DNA from: Chlamydiota bacterium
GTDB taxonomy: Bacteria; Chlamydiota; Chlamydiia; Chlamydiales; JAAKFR01
Assembly: GCA_013288105.1 (NCBI GenBank)
Contig: JABDCM010000003.1
Coordinates: 1-62,414 of the forward strand
Direction: 5' to 3'
Length of the DNA stretch: 62,414 nucleotides
Below, piece by piece: positions 23,402 through 24,942 of the stretch. The notes under the pieces were generated by a model. It was not told the origin of the DNA and did not search any database. It was given only the letters and a program-made list of their open reading frames with translations. The translations under genes were made by a program, and so were the position numbers. The first letter of the stretch is position 1, and every line of letters begins with the position of its first letter.

Positions 23402-24942
23402 ATTTCCTCATTTATATAAGAGATATTGGAGGGCAATGCACGTCCCTGCCATTTTTGAAGCAGTTCTTGTGTTGGATAATAAAATGCAGAAGAAAGTTCA
23501 AATGGTCCAGAAGAGGGTTCTACTCCAGATATTTGATGCATTTTTTTCCTATCCCATGCCAAAAGAGCCGCCTGAACTTCCTCTATGCTATCTTCTCCAT
23601 GTAAATTTTTCAAGGGAGCAAAACACTCTTCTCTCGGAGCAATAAGAGCATGACATTTTTTTGCAAATGGCAAGATATCGAAAATAAACTCCTCAAATTT
23701 CCATCCATTGGGTTCTTGTGGAAAATGAATCTTCCCCTCTTCATCCATTTTTTTGAGCGATTTTTTGGCCTTGTGAATAGGTAAGGAGGCGTTTTGGATC
23801 TCCTCAAGAAAAGAGAGAGAAAAACAAAAAAGCCCTAAATTCGCATTATTAAAAATGTACTCTCCCTGAGGATTTTTAGCCTCTTTCTGTTGTAAAGAAA
23901 GCTCCATATATTCTATCACGGCAGGCTTTCCATTTAGTTGAGCTAATAATCCAACTTTTTCATGACTATTTTTTCTCTTTGCTGTCTTTATAGAGACTTG
24001 TGAGCCCATTCTGTGATGAAAACCAAAAAGTTCGAAATCAAAGGGAAGCGCGAGTGGATTATCAACTGGAACGATATGGATGGTCTCAATGCCCTGCCTT
24101 CGCCATTTTTCTAAAAGCCCTATCTCTCTTAAGCGCTGAAAGACCCCCCCATTTCCATTAGGGCCACTTGCAATCTGATCCGTGGATTCTAGGAAAAGAT
24201 TGCCCTCTAAATCCAGAAAAGGCCATGTCTTTTGAGGAAAAAAGGTGATCTGGTCTGGATGGAGGCCAAAAAAATTATTTTTTATAAAAAAATCTCTCGT
24301 CTCTTGATGATTGAGAGGAGAGGTCATCATTGCAAGTGAGAGAGGATGGCCTACACATGTGCTGGCAGCTCTCATTTTATCAGCAATCAATTCAAAAAGG
24401 CTCTTATTTTTACACACTGAAACTGGTAAGCATCCTTTGGGCAGGGTGGTACGAAGACGAGATCCCTGTCCGCCTGCAAGCACCACACAGGCACATTTTC
24501 CGCTTGCCGCAAGCTCTTTGCCTGCTTCAAAATCTTGACTATTGCCAGAAAAATGGGTTTCTTGAAAAGGTAGGATCTGAGACTCAATCTCTCCCCCTTC
24601 CTCCTCAACCTGAGTTTTGGGTTTTTCTCCCTCAAATTCAGGAAGTTTACTTGCATCTCTTGTGCTTTTCTGACTTGTAAAGGGCCGTTGGCCATTTAAT
24701 CCCAAGATCTGCGGTATAAACTTCTCTGACTTCGAGGAAGACAACCCAAAACTCAGGTTCTCATGAATCATTTTTTGTTGTGCTAATAAAAGATCGCCCT
24801 TGAGTTGTAGGATTTGTGCAGATAGCTTTTCTCTTTGTGTGTGATTAAGAGAATGCCAACAGCGAGAAAGCCTCTCTGCAAATCTACCCTGTCCGATTTC
24901 TTGCAACTTTTCAAAGATTTGCGAATACTGAGATAGGTTCAT
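23398..24942 (-). CDS. Eukaryote-type UDP-N-acetylglucosamine pyrophosphorylase (UDPGP family) with an in-frame repeat-derived insertion near residue 62
   Basis: LAGGQGSRL..PKG, MMTS, PNGNGG, VDNPL, KFEEFIFD, FAPLKN. Confidence 0.92.
   Translation of the reverse strand: MNLSQYSQIFEKLQEIGQGRFAERLSRCWHSLNHTQREKLSAQILQLKGDLLLAQQKMIHENLSFGLSSSKSEKFIPQILGLNGQRPFTSQKSTRDASKLPEFEGEKPKTQVEEEGGEIESQILPFQETHFSGNSQDFEAGKELAASGKCACVVLAGGQGSRLRTTLPKGCLPVSVCKNKSLFELIADKMRAASTCVGHPLSLAMMTSPLNHQETRDFFIKNNFFGLHPDQITFFPQKTWPFLDLEGNLFLESTDQIASGPNGNGGVFQRLREIGLLEKWRRQGIETIHIVPVDNPLALPFDFELFGFHHRMGSQVSIKTAKRKNSHEKVGLLAQLNGKPAVIEYMELSLQQKEAKNPQGEYIFNNANLGLFCFSLSFLEEIQNASLPIHKAKKSLKKMDEEGKIHFPQEPNGWKFEEFIFDILPFAKKCHALIAPREECFAPLKNLHGEDSIEEVQAALLAWDRKKMHQISGVEPSSGPFELSSAFYYPTQELLQKWQGRALPSNISYINEEM
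24608..24758 (-). mobile_element. Palindromic MITE/RPE-like element, copy B (151 bp), in frame within the UAP gene
   Basis: Reverse complement aligns to 10266-10428 with about 9 substitutions and one 12-bp indel (hand count); flanks CCTCA/TCTCA. Confidence 0.9.

Follow-up and report, generated by a model that had tools for sequence, protein, structure and literature searches.

A 151-bp hairpin element, likely an IS982-moved MITE, in frame in a chlamydial UDP-sugar pyrophosphorylase gene

The UDP-sugar pyrophosphorylase gene of a Chlamydiota genome (G000 in the following) was found to contain a 151-bp element (24608-24758) with the ends ACC...GGT. From sequence comparison and modelling we consider it quite probable that this element is a non-autonomous MITE with a hairpin structure, that a transposase of the IS982 family likely moved it, and that it lies in frame in the enzyme gene and is likely translated as a tolerated, floppy loop of 52 residues. 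Positions without a contig label refer to the window, the whole stretch of 62,414 nucleotides that was analysed. The insert and its surroundings comprise the following features.

24608..24758, minus strand: 151-bp MITE copy, of the 163-bp family type minus a private in-frame 12-bp deletion; forms a hairpin
24759..24763, minus strand: target-site duplication copy 1, TGAGA on the gene strand (TCTCA on the forward strand)
24603..24607, minus strand: target-site duplication copy 2, TGAGG on the gene strand (CCTCA on the forward strand), one mismatch
24743..24758, minus strand: terminal inverted repeat at the gene-5' end, 16 bp, fits the IS982 consensus AC-N6-T-N5-TT
24608..24623, plus strand: terminal inverted repeat at the gene-3' end
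24697..24700, minus strand: approximate site of the 12-bp deletion, unique to the pyrophosphorylase copy among the genome's copies
23398..24942, minus strand: host gene, UAP1/AGX1-type UDP-sugar (likely UDP-GlcNAc) pyrophosphorylase, 514 aa, intact
24454..24480, minus strand: LAGGQGSRL nucleotide-binding motif, residues 155-163, 42 residues downstream of the insert
22397..23401, minus strand: gpsA, NAD-dependent glycerol-3-phosphate dehydrogenase; its GTG start overlaps the pyrophosphorylase stop by 4 bases

The insert and its host enzyme

The first-pass annotation had described flanks matching at 4 of 5 positions, an insert of 151 + 5 bp equal to 52 codons, and about 9 substitutions plus one 12-bp indel relative to the copy in the glutamate dehydrogenase gene gdh. 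All three points were reproduced. The flanks CCTCA and TCTCA are identical at 4/5 positions and form a 5-bp target duplication, and global alignment with the gdh copy (10266-10428) gave 9 substitutions and one 12-bp gap. A parse of 153 bp with a 3-bp duplication was tried and failed: in other copies the base beside ACC/GGT departs from A/T and is duplicated nevertheless (gdh with TACAG/TACAG, L080, L078, L126), so that the parse of 151 + 5 bp with 52 extra codons was upheld. An integron attC reading was rejected as well, since the flanks are direct and not inverted repeats; attC ends have the form AAC...GTT. The element is read stop-free as residues 62-112 of the 514-aa ORF, to which one duplication codon is added, and its five other frames contain 2-4 stops each. 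Imperfect inverted-repeat pairing reaches beyond the 16-bp core ends, to about 40 bp in total. The hairpin was calculated at -73.9 kcal/mol (z -8.5), with 0 of 200 shuffles equally stable. Scanning 24400-25100 for promoters and terminators gave 0 and 0 hits.

Contigs of a public sequencing run (X1), possibly derived from the source sample, contain both junctions at flank depth with no empty-site joint listed among them. One junction contig reaches only 28-30 bases into the element, and the full element is spanned by no record of this run. Over 24581-24763 the summed contig depth was about 3700-6600 on the element against 35-43 on the flanks; as the element depth is far above that of the flanks, the assembly likely shows far fewer copies than are present in the organism or community.

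The host enzyme contains the Pfam domain UDPGP (PF01704) and the UAP fold, with the conserved motifs present. Among solved structures its best matches are UAP1/AGX1 enzymes (E 4e-58), with UGP matches at about 1e-7, and a Foldseek search with the host model yielded TM scores of 0.78-0.82 to fungal, insect and human UAP1. Homologs carry either name, UDP-GlcNAc or UDP-glucose pyrophosphorylase, and those named are chlamydial; the E-values of 1e-58 for UAP versus 1e-7 for UGP would favour GlcNAc-1-P as the substrate. The eukaryote-type UAP1/AGX1 enzymes (PDB 9g53, 4bma, 1jv1, 2yqc) have fold and motifs in common with the host enzyme, but just 24-27% identity. A gap of 52 residues versus orthologs had been predicted, and it was found: 117 of the 119 homologs detected were aligned (two short partial ones were omitted), and the linker that carries the insert measures 70 aa in the host and 10-21 aa (modes 16-17) in 117/117 homologs, hence 52 residues were added cleanly. 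The site of insertion is a length-variable linker between the N-terminal helices, after the fourth of them, and the catalytic domain, and the LAGGQGSRL motif (residues 155-163) follows past the insert, as had been stated. The host retains 28 of 28 invariant alignment columns; of 105 highly conserved columns it deviates at 2, both times conservatively, against a median of 3 in the homologs. With no stop, no shift and its conserved columns kept, the gene is intact. An independent and fairly recent insertion had also been proposed; the element differs by 5-10 substitutions from each of 10 full-length sister copies and is absent from all 117 homologs, in line with this proposal.

Strong orthologs of the pyrophosphorylase were found in 38 of 40 relatives, and the genome, which is 61% complete, contains one full PF01704 gene. 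GlmU stayed below its cut-off in 5/5 genomes searched. The essentiality that the first-pass annotation had called probable is plausible on these counts, as an inference from a genome that is 61% complete. A frameshift in the gene would likely be polar too, since the gpsA start overlaps its stop. A distant PF01704 paralog was observed in a 715-aa frame (C1:45419-46027), with counterparts of 600-800 aa across relatives, including those without inserts. On the other side of the pyrophosphorylase gene, a Fic-domain gene (24954-25994) separates it from a run of genes (26115-29683) which, judged by their sequence, we take to be fliJ/fliI/fliH/fliF-like.

The AlphaFold model of the host enzyme reached a mean pLDDT of 90. 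Residues 64-109 and 111-116 scored below 50, the rest averaging well over 90, and the insert was modelled as a coil between the helix of residues 49-61 and the strand at residue 123. The insert is thus predicted to be a disordered surface loop outside the fold, although low pLDDT is weak proof of disorder here because the alignment has no rows over the insert. The insert peptide modelled alone gave a pLDDT of 71 and a pTM of 0.25.

The element family and its candidate mobiliser

Three further members of the family lie in the window.

10266..10428, plus strand: sister copy A, 163 bp, with a perfect TACAG duplication, in frame in the NAD-glutamate dehydrogenase gene gdh (9914-13051)
32081..32296, plus strand: composite copy, family ends around a different palindrome; all frames closed; adjoins a stop codon
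43050..43085, minus strand: solo mini-copy of the end, intergenic

Throughout G000, a total of 76 element ends were counted in 969 kb, corresponding to 26 pairs spaced less than 400 bp apart, one chance pair and 22 unpaired ends. Pair lengths were 163 bp (10 pairs), 325 bp (5) and 95 bp (3), with one pair each of 164, 151, 130, 216, 252, 266, 57 and 55 bp. As in MITEs generally, copies of 151-163 bp without transposase, 16-bp near-perfect inverted ends and many dispersed copies were found. Perfect 5-bp target duplications flank 9 of 21 G000 copies, and duplications of 5-7 bp flank 24/31 pairs in the related genome G275 and 21/27 pairs in G024. They show a T...A preference over 5 bp in G000 and over 5-7 bp in the relatives.

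At the DNA level the family is present in 13 of 24 genomes of the taxonomic family and in 7 further genomes of 300, and matches to the peptides read from its two strands occurred only in 9/23 family genomes, among 400 genomes of the phylum. An 18-base variant of the end is concentrated in chlamydial records, mostly as pairs of 160-166 bp outside long ORFs (among at least 120 loci listed). Pairs of about 160 bp with the same ends were also observed, among the matches listed, in records labelled Bacteroidetes, Verrucomicrobia and Methanosarcinaceae (L237, L295, L296 and others), which may reflect transfer or misbinning. Neither peptide nor DNA of the element matched Pfam, NCBIfam, Rfam, Atlas or plasmid entries, Rfam giving sub-threshold hairpin hits only.

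Several structural variants were distinguished. The 325-bp class (C2:41409, C4:22277, C7:27690, C13:19277, C15:3242; L028, L030, L033, L035, L036) consists of the 163-mer with a nested second palindrome of 162 bp that has different ends. A transposase remnant as the interior of this class was therefore discarded, and a free copy of the nested palindrome was not found in G000. A third palindrome with 40-bp arms was observed between two family ends at three places (32081-32296, C4:44152 and C10:27465 of G000), with closed frames and beside stop codons. About 20 more solo mini-copies of 36-38 bp with an internal inverted end are scattered over G000, some retaining a duplication of their own. G275 harbours a young, uniform 164-bp subfamily (L134-L159; 26 copies, 97.6% mean identity). 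At gdh, about 32 host residues are lost just after the insert, and the gdh labelled P0170 is without about 45 residues at the loop that carries the insert.

The element end, ACCTGAGTTTTGGGTT, fits the IS982 consensus 5'-AC(N)6T(N)5TT at 5/5 defined positions. According to the accessible text of PMC7335449, IS982 elements of about 1 kb have such ends and direct repeats of variable length, and the family includes ISPasp3 of Parachlamydia. The ends and the variable-length duplication of our element are like those of the IS982 family, but the element itself is without transposase. In two other chlamydial genomes the family ends occur at both sides of IS982 transposase sequence (L046, 1021 bp; L240, 1029 bp), and one family end lies beside such sequence at L047, L274, L288 and L291. 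On these grounds the element is likely a non-autonomous MITE moved by an IS982-family transposase. Every IS982 seen with matching ends is broken, and the MITE interior has no likeness to IS982 beyond the ends. IS982 was not found in the 61% complete G000, and searches of G275 and the complete genome G020 gave none at E<=1e-20, although both hold young copies. No contig of run X1 aligned to the IS982 of G024, which is not proof of absence. Further IS982 elements from this family (L205, L206, L207, L214) have different ends. A 1977-bp end pair on C5 was considered as autonomous parent and dismissed, as it encloses a 593-aa ORF that is no transposase.

Frame filter, selection and alternative readings

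In the following, S denotes the strand read in pyrophosphorylase and gdh, F the opposite strand, and phase 0 a target with T at the third and A at the first codon position (xxT-NNN-A). A full-length copy with its duplication comprises 163 + 5 = 168 bases or 56 codons. Among the ten 163-bp copies S phase 0 is open in 9/10 and F phase 0 in 6/10, and the four other frames are closed in 10/10. Phase-0 sites make up 40% of TNNNA and 53% of TANTA in 673 kb of long ORFs. Five G000 copies are clearly in frame. Three are read on S (gdh, pyrophosphorylase, and C5:2521, with gaps versus homologs); the other two are read on F and lie 4-8 residues after the start of signal peptides, with the initiating Met on one side and the hydrophobic core on the other (L026:1472-2590, L027:1470-2345). 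For these two F copies, a restart at TTG inside the element may be an alternative. A 325-bp copy probably lies three codons past the start of a HAD gene, with relatives too distant to fix that start, and a truncated copy lies inside a 630-aa ORF. Other G000 copies adjoin start or stop codons, and no frame-breaking mid-gene insertion was found among the 26 paired copies. The transaldolase, sucB-like, C11 and C4 copies were not counted as coding, an ATG shortly after the element meaning that they may lie upstream of the gene. Copies at L029, L033, L034 and L171 end 3-6 bases before an in-phase ATG, and their end AGGT might act as a ribosome-binding site.

In relatives 11 S-frame coding copies were identified in G011, G013, G020 and G225, the loci of G011 and G013 being partly picked by peptide hits, so that in-frame copies are known from five genomes. 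G013 in addition carries an independent insert in the gdh loop that holds the G000 copy. The coding hosts are unrelated (gdh, UAP, RecD-like, Ogt-like, SBP, BamD-like and unknowns), and in the element tree all coding copies fall into one clade. The closed-frame, mostly 164-bp subfamilies have no end-to-end open frame in 26/27 pairs of G024 and 30/31 pairs of G275; coding copies number 0/27 and 0/31 (one a duplicate call), 0/58 overall, both sets being picked by end pattern. The earlier idea that selection for frame filters the insertions gained support from this: open reading is confined to phase 0 of the two strands, and no coding copy was seen among the 58 of the closed-frame sisters.

The shared frame and orientation of the copies had further been taken as a hint of selection on the peptide or the RNA structure. 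In this form the hint was not upheld. Phase 0 is the sole stop-free register on either strand, so a shared frame needs no peptide selection, and orientation is not shared throughout, as the two signal-peptide copies of G000 read the opposite strand. RNA structure is not preserved inside genes either: 10 old coding copies folded at -34 to -73 kcal/mol versus -76 to -118 kcal/mol for 17 non-coding copies, which were found via intact ends and hence are younger. Compensatory changes were seen at 19 of 49 pairs in 12 diverged, mostly non-coding copies, a count inflated by one opposite-orientation row. Since coding copies lose the hairpin and the diverged, mostly non-coding ones compensate, the hairpin is likely a feature of the element's mobile or intergenic existence, with coding copies decaying in kept frame.

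A dN/dS comparison of coding copies, recommended in the first-pass annotation, was carried out by counting on 13 S-coding 163-bp copies, the pyrophosphorylase copy being left out for its length and 5 of 37 sequences dropped at less than 60% ungapped identity. The result of 0.50 lies below neutral stop-free simulations (0.72 and 0.68; values as low as 0.50 in 2/200 and 6/200), and non-coding copies gave 0.65. The value is lowered, however, because the coding copies of G011 and G013 were chosen through peptide hits. Two G000 S copies differ from the genome consensus by 10 non-synonymous changes and 1 synonymous change. The lower value allows some constraint on the peptide sequence, but with this sampling bias it appears mild at most.

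The data are best accounted for by the following course of events. An element with IS982-type ends and a 5-bp T-NNN-A duplication would have been inserted by a transposase acting in trans. Landing at xxT-NNN-A adds codons without a shift, because 163 + 5 bases are 56 codons and phase 0 alone is stop-free, and the target is the length-variable linker between N-terminal helices and catalytic domain. Frame-breaking insertions in the pyrophosphorylase and in other needed genes would have been purged. The in-frame 12-bp loss may represent the onset of neutral decay of a peptide without function of its own, with selection presumably acting on frame, site and probably solubility.

Tentatively, and in addition to a tolerated passenger, the element lineage might itself be selected to stay translatable: masters of 3n length with open phase 0 would be able to enter coding DNA, and each face would settle at its own kind of site, loops for the soluble S peptide and cleavable signal peptides for the basic-hydrophobic F peptide. 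The last 45 S codons (the phase-0 body) are open in 75/103 non-coding copies and in 10 of 18 lineage representatives where 4-5 were expected (19/300 and 11/300 in the null simulations; p about 0.04-0.06), the representatives being hand-picked and related; pure drift explains these open frames poorly. In the 325-bp class the S frame is still open over 109 codons in 4/5 copies despite the nested 162-bp palindrome. The F copies in G000 sit in signal peptides in 2/2 cases and the clear internal full copies read S in 3/3, with GRAVY values of -0.8 for S and about 0 for F. However, the sorting counts are tiny (2 versus 3, expected 1 in 10 by chance), the palindrome correlates the two phase-0 frames, and the most numerous young subfamilies (the 164-mers of G024, G275 and G013) are closed and thrive between genes. 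The outcome of a hydropathy test (observed -0.89, null -0.67, 0/200) was set aside as evidence, the start sequences being less hydrophilic than the G000 copies (-0.8). Carried further, a chlamydial IS982 MITE lineage would have become a two-faced stealth parasite of coding DNA, combining 3n length plus duplication, a target preference for the safe phase, two open strands, a soluble-loop face and a signal-peptide-like face, and a nested element in frame; we regard this as speculative and rather doubtful. If true, this reading would supply a coding palindrome of the Rickettsia type whose transposase is named and whose closed-frame sisters serve as built-in controls, so that the origin, spread and decay of protein insertions of this sort could be tested directly.

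Co-option of the peptide or the mRNA hairpin for a host function, such as a binding tag, an RNase III site or a pausing signal, is in our view unlikely. The dN/dS of 0.50 against 0.68-0.72 simulated, the still strong hairpin of the pyrophosphorylase copy and the compensatory changes, with their inflated count, would agree with it, as would an independent insertion in G013 (L098, C144) into the same gdh loop, about 14 residues further along. But the hosts are unrelated, old coding copies have lost the hairpin, non-synonymous changes prevail in the two G000 S copies, peptide-based sampling lowers dN/dS, all 117 homologs do without the insert, and Pfam, NCBIfam, Rfam and Atlas gave no match. A recently silenced pseudogene or an assembly error, with the UDP-sugar made by another enzyme, would fit the incomplete genome, the paralog at C1:45419 and the missing record across the full element in X1. 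Against this very unlikely reading stand the intact frame and conserved columns, a frame that survived a 12-bp deletion, both junctions without empty-site joint in X1, the presence of the paralog also in relatives without inserts, the orthologs in 38/40 relatives, and the overlapping gpsA start, by which read-through likely matters. Finally, the hairpin might be lost from the transcript or the protein, through self-splicing, ribosome bypass or an intein-like process, given that its ends pair perfectly and would bring the flanking codons together. This appears hardly credible: splicing would permit closed-frame subfamilies inside genes, where they number 0/58, old coding copies keep the frame and lose the hairpin, and no Rfam intron or ribozyme above cut-off and no Pfam intein motif were found.

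Comparison with known palindromic elements

A tolerated in-frame passenger has its closest counterpart in the Rickettsia palindromic elements (RPE). The S and F peptides gave no NCBIfam match up to E 5, and NCBIfam includes RPE models; as no homology was detected, the chlamydial element was not filed as an RPE. It shows the stable hairpin of 100-150 nt and the in-frame insertion in unrelated conserved genes that characterise RPEs, and from its sequence features it appears to work like them without detectable homology. According to the accessible text of the RPE literature (PMC10969869, PMC2229807, PMC1458961, PMC3733652), RPEs are likewise hairpins of about 150 bp that occur in many copies and lie in frame within conserved but unrelated genes of an intracellular bacterium, with one preferred frame and likely neutral for the enzyme; R. 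bellii has 526 of them, 53 coding. An RPE-bearing guanylate kinase of Rickettsia is translated and active, as reported in the accessible part of PMC2229807.

Two other systems are related in part. The 107-bp and 155-bp forms of the Neisseria Correia/NEMIS elements likewise comprise an open-frame form fusing with ORFs and a closed form between genes (PMC2229807, accessible text). NEMIS have TA termini and a 24-bp TIR, whereas the chlamydial element has a T-NNN-A duplication of 5-7 bp and IS982 ends; in addition, its open/closed split is a one-base length difference, and its inserts lie within conserved enzymes. MITECca01 of Cardinium cOegib is, like our element, an IS982-derived MITE of an intracellular bacterium with ends common with its parent. 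It differs in being 240 bp long, mostly intergenic or gene-inactivating and lineage-specific, with an intact parent in the same genome, and no coding fusion is reported for it in the accessible text (PMC9769881). The accessible text of PMC3184786, PMC11602168 and PMC5814848 added nothing on chlamydial elements. A printed description of the chlamydial element was not found in the open literature; subscription papers, supplements or ISfinder entries could hold one.

Taken alone, the insertion is nothing unusual among elements of this sort, but it points to a position in a UAP1-type enzyme where 50 extra residues are likely accepted. Annotators of environmental chlamydiae should beware of spurious domains of about 55 residues and of wrong starts. 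That new protein sequence can arise from coding palindromes is known, but the reviews, in their accessible text, give the Rickettsia elements no target duplication or mobilising enzyme, and the target duplication of RPEs is listed as "?" in PMC2229807. The chlamydial element differs from RPEs in its target duplication, in IS982-type ends common to transposase-bearing elements, in having both strands open in G000 and in the phylum of its host. Because the chlamydial family joins a duplication, IS982-type ends, young and old copies, and closed sisters that differ by one base and lie outside genes, both the mechanism of insertion and the frame filter become testable in it.
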